From IMG/VR virus record IMGVR_UViG_2645728091_000021: DNA of 9,487 nucleotides; one strand, 5' to 3'. Below are positions 1,307 to 6,188 of this stretch, piece by piece. Origin of the DNA: a virus (lineage: Duplodnaviria > Heunggongvirae > Uroviricota > Caudoviricetes). The notes below the pieces were generated by a model, which did no database searches, was not told the DNA's origin, and saw nothing but the letters and a program-made list of their open reading frames with translations. Positions within the stretch are counted from its first letter, which is position 1. Each line of letters opens with the position of its first letter. Made by a program: the position numbers and the translations under genes.

Positions 1307-3766
1307 TTAAAAATCAACCGGATTCGGGATCAGTTTTTGCCAGATTGCTGAAACGTATTTTGCCTGGTGACGGGCGTCATCCAGTGCATTGTGGCGAACG
1401 CCTTCGAATGGAATAACGGTTCTAGCATCAAAGTCGATTGTTTTTCCCAGCTCAACGATTGTGCGTACATCGCGATCGTTGTGGTAGCGCCACGGGCAGG
1501 GGATTCCCTGTCGTTCGTATGAACGGCGTAAAATTACGTTGTCGAAACTGGTTCCGTTGCCCCAGACCTGAACAAAAAACTCACCGGAGTTTTCGTCGAT
1601 AAATTCCCGTAATTGCAACAGTGCATCATCTAACGGGATTTCATCAGCCAGAATGGCAGACTGCGCTTCGCGCGATTGCTTCAGCCACCACTTAACGGTG
1701 TCCCTGTCAATGACACCGCCAGCAGTATCCAGATCGATGGTCTTACTGAATTCTGGCCCAATATCTCCGGTTTGCGGATCGAAAAATATTGCACCTATTG
1801 AGATAACTGCAGCATCAGGATTTTTTCCCATGGTTTCCAGGTCGATCATCATATGAGTCCACATTCTGTTGCTGGTGGATATGTATTTATGATGACTGTT
1901 CACCGTAATTAGGGGATTTGCCGTCTCGCCAGTTTCATCACTGCTATTGCCATGCTGAGCGTCACCAGCGCTCTCCTTACGAGAATGCGCAGTGCTTTCC
2001 ATTTTCTCCGAATCTTTTTCAGCCAGATTTTCTTCATCGAATGTTTCCTGATATGTTGTGTTACCCATAACAGGCCCGCAGTCCGGACATTTTCCGCCGC
2101 CAGCCCGGCCGCAAGTATTGCAGCTTTTTTCAGTCTCCTGTTGTGCTGTTGGCTCTGACTGTTGCACTTCTGGCCCGTTTTGTTGCGCATCCGGGCTGTT
2201 TTGTTCCGCTTTCTGGTCGTTCTGTTCCATTTCTTGCTGATTCTGGTACACAGAATCGCGAGTCTGGATCCCCTCAACCCACTTCGGATCATTCGGGTCG
2301 CTAATTCCTTCAACAAATTCACCACGTGATGCAGCAAGCACTTTGTCTGCATCAGGCAGATTTTCTGTCTCCATTTTTTTATTTGTTTCGACCGTGTTAA
2401 CTTTTACCGGCTCTGGTTGTTCAGAGTTTTGTGCGGCATTGGTATTTTGCGGTAAGCCTGTGTATGTGCCATTTTTTCGGGCGACGTATTCTTCTTTGGT
2501 GATTTCAGTAGCCCCGGCAGCCAGAGCCTTATTCAGACCAGACAGTTTGTTTGCGCGACCGTATTTTTCGCTGTCCTTATCGGTAAAGAGGAAGTAGAAC
2601 GGTCCTTCACGCTCTACAGATGGTTCAGCTTCCAGTGCGCTTTCATTTTTTTGGGTGCCAGATACTTCTGTTTCCACTGCATCAGTTTGTGTTGCTGACG
2701 ACCGGAGAACATCAGCAGGACTCTGATCCGTTTCTTCATCTTCAAACACGCCTTTTGTCGTCAGGTATTCAGTGATGTATTTGTTCAGCGCCACGGGATC
2801 TTTGTGAATGTTGAGCGGACGTTCGCGAACAAGACCAAAAATCGTCTGACGGCTGTAGCGAAGCGCATCAGGCTGTTTGCGCATTGATGCGGAGATACGC
2901 TTCCAGTCTTCTCGGTCGTTGTCGATAACTTCATTTTTTGCCCAGCGATGGATACTGCCGTCAATGTTTCCGGCATCAATATCACCAGGCCAGAGGGCGC
3001 AGGCCAGTTCGCCATCCAGTGTTTTCCATGTCTGCTTGTATTCGCGATGAATGACAGCAGTTACGGAGTCAGTTTTTCCTGCAGAGTTTTCAGTGCCTTG
3101 CCGGTTGACTCTGGCGCGGGCAAGATCGACGACGGAATTATATGCTCCACCTTCTTTGCGCTCCTTTTCCATGCGTTTTTTACGTTCGAGAAAATACGCC
3201 TGAACGTCGGGCCATTTGGCTGTTGGTTTTAAATCACGTCTGGCATCGTTGATGTACTCAGTCTGACGCTCAGGATATATGGCGTTAATTTCTTTAGTCC
3301 TGATAATTGCTTCAGTGAGGTGTCCATCAAAAGTCGTCATCTCGTCATCGCCGAGAAGCCCGCTTGCATTGATGACCATATCCACGGTGATGTTTTCATG
3401 TGTACCGAACCTGACAAGGACAGCAGCCCGCTTGTCTTCAGATAACTGATTAAAGTTAACAGTTTCTGTATCCGGTTCAGGGTCGACCGGAACAAAGGAA
3501 GCCGACTCCTCATTCCAGCGGTTTTCCTGCATATATTCGGAATCCCAGGAATCGAGAGCAGGGCGGGCCATGCCGGGTTTATCCTCGCAGACAAGAAATT
3601 TATAAGCACAGTCCTGAGCTTCCGGGTATTGTTCCAGAAATAACCAGCTAAATTTGGCTCTTGCCCGGCGTTCGTCGCCTGCTTCAATGGCAGTGGCCAC
3701 AGGTTTAGCGCCTTCTGCTGTTGCCTGTTCGTCCGGAATGGCGGCGCAAATAAAGACTTTACTCAT
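1307..3766 (-). CDS. RecE-like (exodeoxyribonuclease VIII family) mosaic protein with C-terminal DEDDh (DnaQ-like) 3'-5' exonuclease domain (819 aa)
   Basis: Single long minus-strand ORF with a GAGG SD upstream of ATG 3766. The C-terminal ~181 aa (about 1310-1852) carry the three DEDDh motifs in order: MIDLET (Exo I), WGNGTSFD (Exo II), HNALDDARH (Exo III, H-x4-D). The centre has a Q/E-rich low-complexity linker and a C-x2-C-x7-C-x2-C zinc ribbon (CNTCGRAGGGKCPDCG, about 2075-2122), preceded by ...LAASRGEFVEGISDPNDPKWV..., which I recall from the central region of Rac RecE. Sits between the dicB cassette and xis-int, where lambdoid recombination genes normally lie. Confidence 0.8.
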   Translation of the reverse strand: MSKVFICAAIPDEQATAEGAKPVATAIEAGDERRARAKFSWLFLEQYPEAQDCAYKFLVCEDKPGMARPALDSWDSEYMQENRWNEESASFVPVDPEPDTETVNFNQLSEDKRAAVLVRFGTHENITVDMVINASGLLGDDEMTTFDGHLTEAIIRTKEINAIYPERQTEYINDARRDLKPTAKWPDVQAYFLERKKRMEKERKEGGAYNSVVDLARARVNRQGTENSAGKTDSVTAVIHREYKQTWKTLDGELACALWPGDIDAGNIDGSIHRWAKNEVIDNDREDWKRISASMRKQPDALRYSRQTIFGLVRERPLNIHKDPVALNKYITEYLTTKGVFEDEETDQSPADVLRSSATQTDAVETEVSGTQKNESALEAEPSVEREGPFYFLFTDKDSEKYGRANKLSGLNKALAAGATEITKEEYVARKNGTYTGLPQNTNAAQNSEQPEPVKVNTVETNKKMETENLPDADKVLAASRGEFVEGISDPNDPKWVEGIQTRDSVYQNQQEMEQNDQKAEQNSPDAQQNGPEVQQSEPTAQQETEKSCNTCGRAGGGKCPDCGPVMGNTTYQETFDEENLAEKDSEKMESTAHSRKESAGDAQHGNSSDETGETANPLITVNSHHKYISTSNRMWTHMMIDLETMGKNPDAAVISIGAIFFDPQTGDIGPEFSKTIDLDTAGGVIDRDTVKWWLKQSREAQSAILADEIPLDDALLQLREFIDENSGEFFVQVWGNGTSFDNVILRRSYERQGIPCPWRYHNDRDVRTIVELGKTIDFDARTVIPFEGVRHNALDDARHQAKYVSAIWQKLIPNPVDF

Positions 3767-3859: not shown

Positions 3860-4051
3860 TTAAAGGCCTGCCGGGATTTCGTTATTGTTCATGCGAATAA
3901 CTTTGTCGACAGGATAACAGTTCCCGGGAATTTTTTGCTCTGCCGCGGCAGTCATGCATTCTTCCATTGAGTCATGTATGTCAATAACAAGATCAATCGG
4001 TTCACCAGAAACAAAAAAAACAGTCAGAACGAGTACAAATGCCGTATTCAT
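3860..4051 (-). CDS. ydfD: YdfD-like small membrane protein (63 aa)
   Basis: Product MNTAFVLVLTVFFVSGEPIDLVIDIHDSMEECMTAAAEQKIPGNCYPVDKVIRMNNNEIPAGL has an N-terminal hydrophobic helix. Its ATG (4051-4049) overlaps the dicB stop (4050-4048) as ATGA, implying translational coupling. Length and position immediately downstream of dicB match my recollection of Qin YdfD. The longer in-frame start at 4105 was rejected. Confidence 0.7.
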   Translation of the reverse strand: MNTAFVLVLTVFFVSGEPIDLVIDIHDSMEECMTAAAEQKIPGNCYPVDKVIRMNNNEIPAGL

Positions 4052-4236
4052 TGCCTGCATCCTGTTTGCATCAGACGTAAACGGGCCAGCATCGAAACAA
4101 TGCATATTTTATTTAGCAGTTCCTGTTCGTGTTTTCTTTTATTAATGGCATCTTCAGTAAATATCTGATTGCTGATAGTGACACCAATTTCAAAACAACC
4201 TTCAGACGTATTAACGTTTGGTAATAACGTTTCCAT
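4048..4236 (-). CDS. dicB: Cell-division inhibitor DicB (62 aa)
   Basis: Product METLLPNVNTSEGCFEIGVTISNQIFTEDAINKRKHEQELLNKICIVSMLARLRLMQTGCRQ is near-identical to my recollection of E. coli DicB (62 aa). GAGGA SD lies 7 nt upstream of ATG 4236-4234. The 97-aa extended ORF from 4341 is not supported. Confidence 0.9.
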   Translation of the reverse strand: METLLPNVNTSEGCFEIGVTISNQIFTEDAINKRKHEQELLNKICIVSMLARLRLMQTGCRQ

Positions 4237-4405
4237 TATCGCGTCCTCAACAATGAATTTTGTGATGCGGTGCCTGGTGCCTCCAGGTGACGTTAACCAG
4301 TTAACAATTAACGCCGGATACAGAGAATCCACCCATAACACTGTTTTTGGTTTTAACTGTTCCGCGTGCGCTGAGCCGCATTCACCGCATCACAAAATTC
4401 ACTTT

Positions 4406-4446
4406 AAAAAGGGCGGACATCAGTTCATGGGCAAACAGATGCCGCC
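4406..4446 (-). terminator. Intrinsic terminator forming the DicF 3' end
   Basis: On the minus strand GGCGGCAUC...GAUG(U)CCGCC forms a ~9-bp stem with one bulge and a 16-nt loop, followed by UUUUU (plus 4406-4410 is AAAAA). Confidence 0.7.
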
Positions 4447-4461
4447 AAACGTCACCAGAAA
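4406..4461 (-). ncRNA. dicF: DicF small regulatory RNA (ftsZ-targeting sRNA)
   Basis: Minus-strand sequence UUUCUGGUGACGUUUGGCGGCAUCUGUUUGCCCAUGAACUGAUGUCCGCCCUUUUU. The 5' ~20 nt and the terminal GCCGCCCUUUUU match what I recall of E. coli K-12 DicF; the central part differs. It lies ~170 nt upstream of dicB, as in Qin. Confidence 0.85.
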
Positions 4462-4765
4462 ATTGATAACAGAGGGCGTTGCAGCGGGGTTGTCACTTAA
4501 GCGTATGGTCAACCTGACAACCCGGTGTCCTCAACGGGGAAGGAATAACCCCGCCATACTTACCGCCGCGCCATTTCGCGGAGTGCCACAACCGGAAGCG
4601 CACGGTCGACGAAAATTTAACGACAGGCTATCTATGAACCAGCTACCTCGCCGTGCGCTTTCGCGTTATGGTCTGACTTTTCAGGGAAATATCCTTTCAG
4701 TAAACTGTCAGTGCCGGATGCTCACCCGTGTCCGGCGCACGCACTCTACCTCACCCGTGAATAAA

Positions 4766-5140
4766 TTAATGATTAATTGATATTTTATAGGTGGATTCAA
4801 CTTTCCCATCGGATGTGTGATGCTTTAAATCACAGGAATTAATACTGCTTGCTGTAAAGTGATTTTTAAGGGGGGCTATTCGAATCCCTTTCTTTTTCAT
4901 TAACAGGCCAAATCCCTTATTAATGATGTCCATTAATTCCAGACAGTATTTTTCATGTAAATCCTGGTTATCAGAGAGCTGCTTCTCTTCGTATAGCCCG
5001 ATAAAGGCTCGGCGCACGTTACCGGATATATTATCGATGGTTTCTTTTTCTACGGTACTCAGGTCAAGAGTAGCCAATTGAGAACGAACTATATTCGCTG
5101 CCATTTCCTGGAATGGTATTGGTAAATCTTTAAATTCCAT
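4766..5140 (-). CDS. Hypothetical protein (124 aa), AT-rich cargo gene in the dicB operon
   Basis: Minus-strand ORF; preferred start is ATG 5140-5138 (MEFKDLPIPFQ...), preceded by GAGG with a 6-nt spacer. The alternative ATG at 5152-5150 overlaps the upstream gene stop as TGATG. Visibly AT-rich relative to flanking genes. No motif I recognise. Confidence 0.6.
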   Translation of the reverse strand: MEFKDLPIPFQEMAANIVRSQLATLDLSTVEKETIDNISGNVRRAFIGLYEEKQLSDNQDLHEKYCLELMDIINKGFGLLMKKKGIRIAPLKNHFTASSINSCDLKHHTSDGKVESTYKISINH

Positions 5141-5151
5141 CGTCAACCTCA

Positions 5152-5304
5152 TCAGTCAGTGTTTCTGGCTAACCAGCGACGCGCGCCAGATTCGGTTTTA
5201 AGCGTTTTGCTTTTGGTATACGTCATTGCGGTGAACGTACCGTCCTGGTTTGGGAACACGCCGCACACCAGAGATTCGTTGTTGCCAAGATCGATAGTAT
5301 TCAT
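5152..5304 (-). CDS. ydfA: YdfA-like small protein (50 aa)
   Basis: Product MNTIDLGNNESLVCGVFPNQDGTFTAMTYTKSKTLKTESGARRWLARNTD; GAGG SD 5 nt upstream of ATG 5304-5302. It is the first gene after the leftward promoter, as ydfA is in Qin, and resembles my recollection of the YdfA (DUF1391-type) family. The upstream in-frame Met at 5358 lacks an SD. Confidence 0.6.
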   Translation of the reverse strand: MNTIDLGNNESLVCGVFPNQDGTFTAMTYTKSKTLKTESGARRWLARNTD

Positions 5305-5381
5305 GCTGACCTCATTTCCCCTTAACGCCGGGGTAGCTGAACTGTTTGCTGAGAACACCGTGCGGTGTCTTGGTGGAGATT

Positions 5382-5436
5382 AATTTAGAATAACCTAACA
5401 AATGTGGCAAGTATTTTTTGTTAGATTGGTCTAACA
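5382..5436 (-). promoter_or_regulatory. Leftward early promoter (PdicB-like) with two DicA-type operator palindromes
   Basis: Minus-strand -35 TTGCCA (plus 5405-5410), 17-bp spacer, -10 TAAATT (plus 5382-5387). A degenerate operator TTAG-N6-CTAACA (5383-5400) sits in the spacer; a perfect TGTTAG-N6-CTAACA palindrome (5419-5436) sits just upstream of the -35. Confidence 0.5.
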
Positions 5437-5472
5437 AAAAGAGTGAGGGAATCTAAGTATCTGAAAGGAGTG

Positions 5473-5880
5473 TTATTTTATTGATTTGTTTTTACGTGCT
5501 TTAAGCATTTCTTCGAAGAGTTTATTGAAATTTTCTACTCTTGCGCGCATTTCAGACAGTAAGGCTTCCTGCTCGGAGGAGGGAAGAGCATCGAATAATT
5601 CGATCAATTCTTTGTGGCTGGGAGTTAACTCGGTTTCCACATGAAGTTCTTGTGCTGGCACTGGTGCCTTGTCTTCGTCACCAAACATTAGCCATGTAGG
5701 CGAGCACTTCAGCGCATCAGCTAAAGCAAATAACCGCTTCCCGACCGGTTGGGTTTCGTCTCTTTCCCATTGTGAAATTGTGACGTGAGCTACCCCAGCG
5801 AGGCGTGCAGCTTCTCGTTGTGTTAGGCGTAATTCTTTTCGTCGTGCCAGAACTCGCTGGCCTAGGGTTCTTGTATCCAT
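5473..5880 (-). CDS. dicA: DicA-like HTH (XRE family) prophage repressor (135 aa)
   Basis: Product carries an N-terminal HTH (LTQREAARLAGVAHVTISQWERDETQP). The C-terminal part (...LFALADALKCSPTWLMFGDEDK...LPSSEQEALLSEMRARVENFNKLFEEMLKAR...) closely matches my recollection of E. coli DicA, which is also 135 aa. Divergent from the cro-like gene. No SD; a TAGAAT -10 lies 9 nt upstream of the ATG, suggesting a near-leaderless mRNA. Confidence 0.9.
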   Translation of the reverse strand: MDTRTLGQRVLARRKELRLTQREAARLAGVAHVTISQWERDETQPVGKRLFALADALKCSPTWLMFGDEDKAPVPAQELHVETELTPSHKELIELFDALPSSEQEALLSEMRARVENFNKLFEEMLKARKNKSIK

Positions 5881-5957
5881 AGTTAGGTAATTCTAATTTT
5901 TCTTGACTTAGGTATCCCGCGCACATTACTGTTAGGAATATCTAACAAGAGGGGGCT
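5881..5957. promoter_or_regulatory. Divergent immunity promoters (PdicA-like leftward, PdicC-like rightward) with operator palindrome
   Basis: Perfect palindrome TGTTAG-gaatat-CTAACA at 5930-5947 and a weaker AGTTAG-N6-CTAATT at 5881-5898. Rightward -35 TTGACT at 5903-5908 with a weak -10 near 5926-5932. Leftward -10 TAGAAT (plus 5890-5895) just upstream of the dicA-like ATG. Confidence 0.5.
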
Positions 5958-5960
5958 TTG

Positions 5961-6188
5961 ATGCTTAAAGTTGACGCAATTACTTTTTTTGGCAGCAAAA
6001 CAAAACTTGCCAATGCCGCAGGAGTGAAACTGGCAAGTGTTGCTGCATGGGGGGAACTGGTTCCTGAAGGTCGCGCGATGCGCCTGCAAGAGGCATCCGG
6101 CGGGGAACTTCAGTACGACCCCAAAGTTTATGACGAATATCGTAAGGCAAAGCGGGCGGGGCGGTTGAACAATGAAAATCACCCCTGA
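5961..6188 (+). CDS. dicC: DicC-like Cro-type regulator (75 aa)
   Basis: Product MLKVDAITFFGSKTKLANAAGVKLASVAAWGELVPEGRAMRLQEASGGELQYDPKVYDEYRKAKRAGRLNNENHP matches my recollection of DicC. GAGGGGG SD 5 nt upstream of ATG 5961; the TTG at 5958 in the ORF track is less likely. Divergent from the dicA-like gene. Confidence 0.85.
   Translation: MLKVDAITFFGSKTKLANAAGVKLASVAAWGELVPEGRAMRLQEASGGELQYDPKVYDEYRKAKRAGRLNNENHP

Follow-up and report, generated by a model that had tools for sequence, protein, structure and literature searches.

A mosaic two-module gene family in the slot behind ydfA of dicBF-type prophage operons

What occupies the position of ydfB and ydfC in a dicBF operon that carries a different sequence there, and what might its product do? 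The question is raised by a stretch of 9,487 nucleotides (nt) of viral DNA (IMG/VR record IMGVR_UViG_2645728091_000021, Caudoviricetes; hereafter the window), which belongs to a Qin/CP-933-type lambdoid prophage and takes in its left arm, its immunity region and the beginning of its replication region. The dicBF operon is the model for cryptic prophage products (DicF, DicB) that reshape Escherichia coli physiology and phage resistance, and to our knowledge the experiments on it have so far all been done in K-12, where ydfA, ydfB and ydfC are the promoter-proximal genes. An earlier note, made from the letters of the window, had pointed to an AT-rich open reading frame (ORF) of 124 amino acids (aa), without a recognised motif, behind a ydfA-like gene. 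Sequence comparison showed this ORF, here called the target gene, to be one allele of an uncharacterised two-module family, with a shared N-terminal head and an exchangeable C-terminal module. The parts of the locus to which the argument refers are as follows.

4411..4460, minus strand: variant of the DicF small RNA (sRNA), Rfam RF00039, 43.5 bits, E 2.7e-8, full model length
4461..4759, minus strand: untranslated leader from the target gene to DicF, conserved; homology to K-12 Qin restarts 6 nt past the target stop
4766..5140, minus strand: target gene, 124 aa plus stop (MEFKDLP...ISINH), with a phrog_6937 match and a RefSeq coding sequence (CDS) of equal length
4976..5140, minus strand: head module, residues 1-55, predicted helical hairpin (helices 8-23 and 32-54) with a predicted local distance difference test score (pLDDT) of 86-92
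4766..4975, minus strand: allele-specific C-terminal module, residues 56-124, ending in ...ISINH, 33% GC
5141..5154, minus strand: ydfA/target junction with the ydfA stop TGA at 5154-5152, a second in-frame TGA, GAGG at 5149-5146 and the ATG at 5140
5152..5307, minus strand: ydfA-like gene, 51 aa, DUF1391 (PF07151, E 2.8e-28), near-identical to K-12 ydfA

To place the target gene relative to K-12, the window was aligned with the Qin prophage of MG1655. The ydfA gene, its 5' untranslated region (5'-UTR) and the leader together with DicF were nearly identical, whereas the sequence from the ydfA stop to 6 nt past the target stop was unrelated. The target gene therefore shares with K-12 ydfB/ydfC the slot between ydfA and the DicF leader, as the earlier note had proposed, and the non-coding gap from its stop to DicF, which the note had put at about 300 nt, measured 305 nt. 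In K-12, ydfB and ydfC code for small proteins that are made from the promoter dicBp and whose function is unknown (PMC5069750). Neither is a relative of the target. YdfB (b1572, 42 aa) gave no BLASTP alignment at E<=100 and an hhalign probability of 0.12%; YdfC (b1573, 72 aa, phrog_1744) gave a BLASTP E of 1.9 over 7 residues and, again, an hhalign probability of 0.12%. Homology to either protein was rejected on both kinds of comparison.

The earlier note had read the gene from an ATG that overlaps the ydfA stop (TGATG) and had taken the overlap as a sign of coupled expression. Read in this way, from the alternative in-frame ATG at 5152-5150, the minus-strand ORF spans 4766..5152 and encodes 128 aa. 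The 124-aa form starts at ATG 5140-5138, 6 nt after the GAGG. In a locus of 99% identity the RefSeq annotation has a CDS of 375 nt, the phrog_6937 profile begins at residue 5 of the 128-aa reading, and MEFKDLP is the beginning of every homolog. The four upstream codons are missing in Shiga toxin (Stx) phage, PPompW and Evi contexts, and the ctgactgatgaggttgacg ATG is kept in ydfA-linked loci. The start in use is thus probably ATG 5140 rather than the overlapping ATG. At 11 nt past the ydfA stop it would still be near enough for coupled translation or re-initiation, so that the coupling part of the proposal may stand, though probably not the start codon on which it was based.

Is the ORF a gene at all? 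Its GC content is 37.3%, in agreement with the AT-richness that had been noticed, and lies below that of the window (45.7%), of ydfA (50%) and of the leader (54%); it is split between 42% in the head and 33% in the remaining 3' two-thirds. When the 500-nt region was shuffled 2000 times, an ATG-initiated ORF of at least 124 aa appeared in only 4 of the shuffled sequences. Across 10 distinct alleles of the 124-aa class, the ratio of nonsynonymous to synonymous polymorphism (pN/pS) was 0.29 overall, with 0.17 in the head, 0.29 in residues 56-87 and 0.37 in the tail, at a synonymous divergence (dS) of up to ~0.6. The exact protein is recorded in 17 contigs and belongs to a 90% cluster of 640 members, and intact 124-aa ORFs are present in hundreds of genomes. 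Since pN/pS is low in the head, middle and tail alike, these comparative data show the target to be a real gene that codes for a protein and is under purifying selection from end to end.

The opposite view, that this is a non-functional ORF decaying in a defective prophage, is scarcely tenable. In its favour, many truncated or frame-shifted variants were found (68-, 89-, 106- and 109-aa forms), and the carrier may be a cryptic prophage, the integrase being frameshifted in the closest E. coli relative. The low pN/pS at appreciable dS and the hundreds of intact copies speak against decay, as does the company that the gene keeps. In mEp460_ev081, a functional temperate phage, the repressor is followed by a 50-aa ORF at the ydfA position, the head protein, dicB, an exonuclease and xis, which is the layout of the window; the family also occurs in inducible Stx phages.

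To find relatives of the protein, sequence and profile searches were performed. The target matched phrog_6937 over its full length (E 7.5e-76; residues 5-128 of the 128-aa reading against profile positions 1-124). Its first ~55-60 residues also matched phrog_1363, phrog_2151, phrog_9419 and phrog_33007, all annotated as of unknown function. Scans of Pfam, NCBIfam and PADLOC-DB 2.0 gave no match (0 PADLOC families at E<=0.1), whether to a defence, an anti-defence or any other family, nor did a Pfam scan of ten other head-family members at E<=1. Searches of the PDB by sequence, with the single sequence and with a 74-sequence profile, returned nothing below E 0.19, and no fold match was obtained for the target. 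The absence of a recognisable motif, which the earlier note had judged by eye, therefore held up in all four of these collections. A word-indexed search of 5.8e9 proteins returned 227 relatives, all hypothetical proteins from Escherichia, Shigella and Salmonella, and an exhaustive hidden Markov model (HMM) search of 1.84e9 cluster representatives returned only 60, nearly all aligned to positions 1 to ~60. Homologs of 124 aa share 80-94% identity with the target.

The shared part is the head, with the consensus MEFKDLPxx[IVF]QxIAAxxL...K[EK]...ARNVRDAFxxLY. M1, L6, P7, Q11, A14 and F46 are invariant, and A15, L49 and Y50 of the target are at further conserved positions. An HMM built from an 18-sequence alignment that included the window's own head found the head in the window and in 78 loci. 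Heads were seen fused to at least six unrelated C-terminal modules of 50-160 residues, and head-only proteins of 50-73 aa exist as well. The target is catalogued (RefSeq hypothetical protein, PHROG 6937), and the 121-aa class is named 'Ybl81' in UniRef; judging from the records and the searchable literature, in which no study of the gene or of its PHROG family was found, the organisation as a head plus a swappable tail and the place behind the repressor appear to be undescribed. The 'ydfA' of an IncI-plasmid paper proved to be an unrelated gene. YdaG of the Rac prophage was set aside as a head relative, having no resemblance by eye. A metagenomic representative of 149 aa (P0158) was found to join a YdfC-like domain (phrog_1744, residues 1-66) to a head (residues 91-144), which may point to YdfC and the head family being functionally connected; in PPompW and Evi, too, a ydfC-type gene adjoins a head-family gene.

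To determine how the slot varies, the 80 IMG/VR loci most similar to the window YdfA, out of at least 579, were collected and analysed together with the window (81 loci). A head-bearing ORF directly followed ydfA in 66 of them. In this sample, which by its selection favours the window's own allele, the C-terminal classes were distributed as follows.

121-aa class: 20 loci
124-aa class (that of the window): 17 loci
112-aa class: 10 loci
212-aa class: 8 loci
129-aa class: 4 loci
133-aa class: 1 locus
Truncated head-bearing forms: 2 loci

The slot from ydfA to the leader measured between 391 and 1360 nt and was empty in one locus. The slot varies in length and content, as had been envisaged earlier, yet it does not take cargo freely: it is mostly filled by a single head family of which only the C-terminal part is swapped. 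A ydfB-type start was present in 1 of the 81 ydfA loci, and to go by this sample the K-12 ydfB/ydfC arrangement may be atypical of most E. coli dicBF operons. In one IMG/VR locus (L077) the K-12-type ydfB start (MDFDTIMEKAYEEYFEGLAEGEEALSFSEFKQAL) runs on as a 194-aa ORF, so the 42-aa YdfB of K-12 may be a truncated remnant.

By pairwise DNA comparison, the mosaic junctions on the left fall within the ORF (nt 20, 57, 68 and 160) and the one on the right falls in the leader, 6-85 nt past the stop. The window head was found with unrelated tails (P0095, P0103, P0118 and L066), and the window tail with other heads (P0074, P0085 and P0093). The components are common to different degrees. Among 5,426 complete E. 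coli genomes, the DicF leader as query had a match in 4,317 (up to 8 copies per genome), ydfA in 3,808 (6,586 places), the whole target ORF in 1,429 and the allele-specific C-terminal half in 679.

The first 20 nt of the head-family ORFs (ATGGAATTTAAAGATTTACC; window 5121-5140, minus strand) form the innermost mosaic breakpoint. The synonymous positions of codons 2-6 were identical in 24 of 25 distinct start regions (window, L083, L084, L085, L088 and IMG/VR loci); the exception was a single D5E variant, with GAG for GAT. In the Stx-phage form, codon 2 is CAA (Gln). This identity holds even where the DNA on both sides is unrelated, and for every codon the synonym richest in A/U is used. Selection for a translation start free of structure might account for it, as might a role as a recombination anchor.

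A constant N-terminus, unrelated C-termini and breakpoints at the domain border are reminiscent of polymorphic toxins, and the small upstream gene with its overlapping or adjacent stop and start could be likened to the other half of a toxin-antitoxin-like pair. If so, the target would be a toxin, alone or paired with YdfA, its N-terminal domain a trafficking or neutralisation handle and its variable C-terminus the toxic part. This explanation is barely plausible. There is no immunity ORF downstream, where the conserved leader begins 6 nt after the stop, and Pfam scans of the target gave neither a toxin nor a secretion domain. Moreover, head-only members exist, and YdfA and the head each occur alone: YdfA without the head in K-12 Qin, Rac (ydaF) and L020, and the head without YdfA in L089, L090, L093 and Stx phages. 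For the same reason an obligate partnership with YdfA was rejected.

The genomic context of more distant relatives was then compared. Six distant members were looked up by exact sequence, one of them on a contig too short to give context. In the other five, the head gene was the first gene of the operon behind the repressor in three cases, the second (after a DUF1391 gene) in another and a later one in the last; downstream of it, four of the five encode Kil, KilR or a RecE-type exonuclease, and a Cro/YdaS plus YdaT pair stood across the repressor in all five. In PPompW prophages, and likewise in phage Evi, the head gene follows a ydfC-type gene. In the Stx phages (Oslovirus-type, ArgO145, PA2, TL-2011c and the O104:H4 phage P13374) it is distal to exo, by ea22-like genes. 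Taken together, gene order shows the family to be a promoter-proximal (first or second) early-left gene of those Qin-, Rac- and CP-933-type prophages that have Cro/YdaS and YdaT genes right of the repressor; DicF/DicB, Kil or KilR, as the division inhibitor, comes downstream of it.

An immunity-specific partner of the repressor, such as an antirepressor or co-repressor, was considered for this position and rejected. The window's C-terminal class adjoins 8 of 13 unrelated clusters of upstream ORFs (repressors), so that the same class stands beside at least eight unrelated repressor types, and a 99%-identical copy of the target adjoins a repressor that is not DicA.

A small ORF of 66-86 aa, convergent with the head gene and overlapping its 3' end on the opposite strand, is called in several further prophages that carry a head; the window lacks such an ORF.

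L084, 4386-4619, opposite strand: convergent ORF
L085, 4386-4619, opposite strand: convergent ORF
L087, 4335-4535, opposite strand: convergent ORF
L090, 4271-4507, opposite strand: convergent ORF
L093, 4182-4442, opposite strand: convergent ORF
L095, 4377-4595, opposite strand: convergent ORF

When would the protein be made? The region upstream of ydfA was inspected for control elements, with the following result.

5308-5381, minus strand: ydfA 5'-UTR, nearly invariant between the window prophage and K-12 Qin
5382..5410, minus strand: dicBp-like sigma-70 promoter, -35 TTGCCA, 17-nt spacer, -10 TAAATT (consensus match only)
5385-5398: operator-like palindrome TTAG-N6-CTAA overlapping the promoter
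5421-5434: operator-like palindrome TTAG-N6-CTAA just upstream of the promoter
5473..5880, minus strand: DicA-type repressor, 135 aa, NCBIfam NF007257 (E 4.6e-67, 224 bits against a cut-off of 101), HTH_3
5883-5896 and 5932-5945: operator-like palindromes TTAG-N6-CTAA between dicA and the cro-like gene

The promoter-like site lies upstream of ydfA and aligns with the position of K-12 dicBp. The window has four TTAG-N6-CTAA matches, each of them in one of the two intergenic regions that flank dicA, against 0.09 expected by chance, and none of 200 shuffles reached four. A consensus scan of the coding strand from 4000 to 6000 found no further promoter-like site. As palindromes found nowhere but around dicA overlap the promoter-like site, the motif evidence agrees with the earlier placement of the target gene downstream of a repressor-controlled promoter.

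For K-12, dicBp is reported to be repressed ~22-fold by DicA, to be relieved by the antirepressor Rem, to switch on spontaneously in ~1% of cells and to give a single polycistronic transcript from ydfA through dicF and dicB (ydfABC-dicF-dicB-ydfD) (PMC10448788). Derepression of Qin leads to filamentation that depends on DicF and DicB (PMC5069750; PMC10448788). By extension, the DicA-repressed promoter of dicBp type would be the only source of the target's transcript, and its translation would follow that of ydfA by coupling or re-initiation. Given such a promoter and such coupling, the protein would appear within minutes of derepression or infection, or else in a small derepressed subpopulation.

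A gene placed first or second after the promoter, in the position of lambda N and P22 gene 24, could act on the expression of the operon itself, either as an N-like antitermination factor or through its translation alone, which would shield the mRNA from Rho before DicF and dicB. The ydfA 5'-UTR is almost invariant relative to K-12 Qin and holds two short inverted repeats (seen by eye only), the first 20 nt of the ORF are conserved at all synonymous sites, and expression of dicB needs read-through of the DicF terminator (PMC5069750). Such a role is nevertheless very improbable. The head is acidic, with a predicted isoelectric point (pI) of 4.65, and has only two lysine or arginine residues among its first 25, so that the N-terminal arginine-rich motif of lambda N and P22 gp24 is missing. 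K-12 Qin, without the family, makes the full transcript and shows the DicB/DicF phenotypes, the slot can be empty, and the Stx-phage copies lie far from the promoter. Purifying selection at the amino-acid level over the whole ORF further argues against a purely cis role. The target is therefore an accessory gene that is not needed for the expression or action of DicF or DicB, as these are expressed in a Qin prophage that lacks the head family; the one locus with an empty slot agrees with this status. It is a mosaic accessory gene of the kind known in lambdoid early operons.

To see what kind of protein the gene may encode, its structure was predicted with AlphaFold2 (AF2). The mean pLDDT was 57.5 with a 15-sequence alignment and rose to 72.5 with 74 sequences. 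The second helix of the head hairpin is strongly amphipathic. In the 74-sequence model, the C-terminal module contains a third helix at residues 59-83 (pLDDT ~80) and a tail below 55, the last ~35 residues being unreliable; it is thus modelled as one amphipathic helix with a flexible tail. The maximum Kyte-Doolittle (KD) hydropathy over 19 aa was 0.53, which classes the target as a soluble protein without a transmembrane segment.

Because the protein is small, helical and soluble and has no catalytic motif, it would be expected to act by stoichiometric binding. In the mechanism that we envisage, the head would bind a conserved target, probably a host protein, and the exchangeable C-terminal module would add or tune a second specificity. 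Superinfection exclusion, anti-defence and host takeover, the roles that the earlier note had put forward, are all conjectural. Our preferred reading, held tentatively and by analogy with other phages, is that of a soluble immediate-early binder that may serve early host takeover or counter-defence of the phage rather than protection of the lysogen. The absence of a promoter of its own and the transcript that it shares with lethal division inhibitors make takeover or counter-defence the likelier of these purposes. DicB, Kil and KilR fall in a similar size class, belong to the same repressed operon and are always encoded downstream of the head gene; they differ in having known targets (MinC/FtsZ) and bear no sequence relationship to the head.

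The main competitor is a lysogen-protective factor, active in superinfection exclusion or abortive infection, that would be made at a low level or in a derepressed subpopulation and whose swapped C-terminal modules would recognise different invaders. SieB of lambda, Rac and P22 is a superinfection exclusion membrane protein with its own promoter, and in Rac sieB lies directly after the DUF1391 gene ydaF, on the opposite strand. The C-terminal module of the target is AT-rich and swappable, like many defence morons. Expression of DicB, a product of the same operon, is reported to give protection against phages (PMC6832061), and ydfA transcripts are detectable in stationary-phase K-12 (PMC10448788). 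The stretch of the window from dicA to the promoter yielded no intrinsic terminator. Unlike SieB, the target runs in the same direction as the repressed operon and lacks both a hydrophobic segment and, in the consensus scan, its own promoter-like site; it gave no PADLOC match either. Its coupling to an operon of lethal division inhibitors would make sustained expression in the lysogen costly, and the existence of head-only members indicates that the variable part is dispensable for the core function. On balance we regard lysogen protection as unlikely.

The second helix invites comparison with lambda CIII, a helical early-left protein of ~54 aa that binds a host protein through an amphipathic helix and favours lysogeny by inhibiting FtsH. 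By analogy, the target could modulate the lysis-lysogeny decision as CIII or the exo-xis genes do, its second helix inhibiting a protease such as FtsH or stabilising YdaT, which is encoded at the CII position. The head is close to CIII in size, and its ARNVRDAFxxLY resembles the CIII core TRKLRDGWKRLI by eye. No CIII homolog was found in the complete left operon of the window or in 97 loci, an absence that is firm only for the window because the fetched loci span only a few kb. The family also co-occurs with YdaT right of the repressor, in the window and in five distant members. The Stx-phage members belong to an accessory region that is distal to exo and have ea22-like genes nearby, and genes of the exo-xis region are reported to affect lysogenisation (PMC3824215, PMC7093339).

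Homology to CIII (PF02061) was rejected. Comparison of the head with CIII gave an hhalign probability of 0.36% and a pairwise E of 0.17, Lambda_CIII was not matched in Pfam by the target or the family members even at E<=1, and the target does not match the core of the CIII profile, ESLLERITRKLRxGWKRLxDILNQPGVP. The likeness is thus one of size and of a locally similar motif, which is short and could be chance; CIII differs in adjoining kil, in not being promoter-proximal and in having no variable C-terminal modules. A CIII-like function is accordingly quite unlikely. Ea22 (ead) is likewise an early-left accessory gene, and in Stx phage P13374 it adjoins the head-family gene. The ea22 family is described as highly diverse in sequence (PMC7093339). 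The Ea22 proteins are larger and unrelated in sequence, and a prolysogenic role has been reported for ea22.

Several points weigh against the immediate-early binder that we prefer. The gene is known from its sequence alone, no paper mentioning it having been found, and the binding mechanism is argued only from size, helices, absent motifs and analogy with small early phage proteins, its partner being putative. The C-terminal third is modelled at low confidence. Selection within the allele class is purifying, not diversifying, with no sign of an arms race beyond the swapping of modules. The class frequencies in the slot are biased towards the window's allele, because the sample was drawn from the loci closest to its YdfA. 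Finally, with no intrinsic terminator detected between dicA and the promoter, low-level read-through could express the target gene in lysogens.

A bolder form of the immediate-early binder may be stated, although we hold it to be doubtful. The head would be an unrecognised immediate-early effector domain that docks on one conserved host hub (a protease, the division machinery or a defence sensor), and the C-terminal modules would be exchangeable warheads or decoys, shuffled at fixed junctions. Polymorphic effector families would then have a phage equivalent in the head family, one that a large proportion of E. coli genomes would contain and that would have escaped notice because ydfB and ydfC take its place in K-12 Qin. 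Should the head have a single host target, it would be a new player in early lambdoid host takeover; should the gene have no phenotype, it would be one more mosaic accessory gene. In either case the head family is abundant 'dark matter', for which no Pfam model, structure or paper was found, and it offers a clear way in for experiments: its promoter is repressor-controlled, and null alleles, head-only forms and tail-swap variants occur naturally.

Of the remaining genes of the window, those for an 819-aa exonuclease, a DUF4224 protein and an integrase lie on the minus strand, distal to the ydfD-like gene. The plus strand carries one P22-Cro-like and one YdaT-like gene, replication genes, a DUF977 gene and a SIR2-like ORF. 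Those with coordinates are listed below.

1307-3766, minus strand: 819-aa exonuclease, C-terminal Rv2179c-like 3'-5' exoribonuclease domain (residues 637-809, E 1.3e-65)
3860..4051, minus strand: ydfD-like gene, DUF1482 (PF07358, E 8.2e-23), phrog_1092 over 63/63 positions
4048..4236, minus strand: dicB, 62 aa, PF05358 (E 2.2e-38), NF049927
8456-9487 and past the window end, plus strand: SIR2-like ORF, 343 aa so far, Pfam SIR2_2 (26.1 bits, cut-off 24.5)

The long N-terminal region of the 819-aa exonuclease had no domain match in the Pfam scan. The DicF match, at 43.5 bits, is below the RF00039 gathering score of 48, and was recovered with an E-value threshold and missed at the gathering threshold; relative to K-12, the seed region of the window DicF is kept and the terminator hairpin is different. 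A spacer of ~370 nt with 31-32% GC separates the DUF977 gene from the SIR2-like ORF. The latter gave weak PADLOC matches to Aga_SIR2, PDC-S21 and SIR2 (E 4e-6 to 4e-4) and looks like a defence-type moron of the early-right region.

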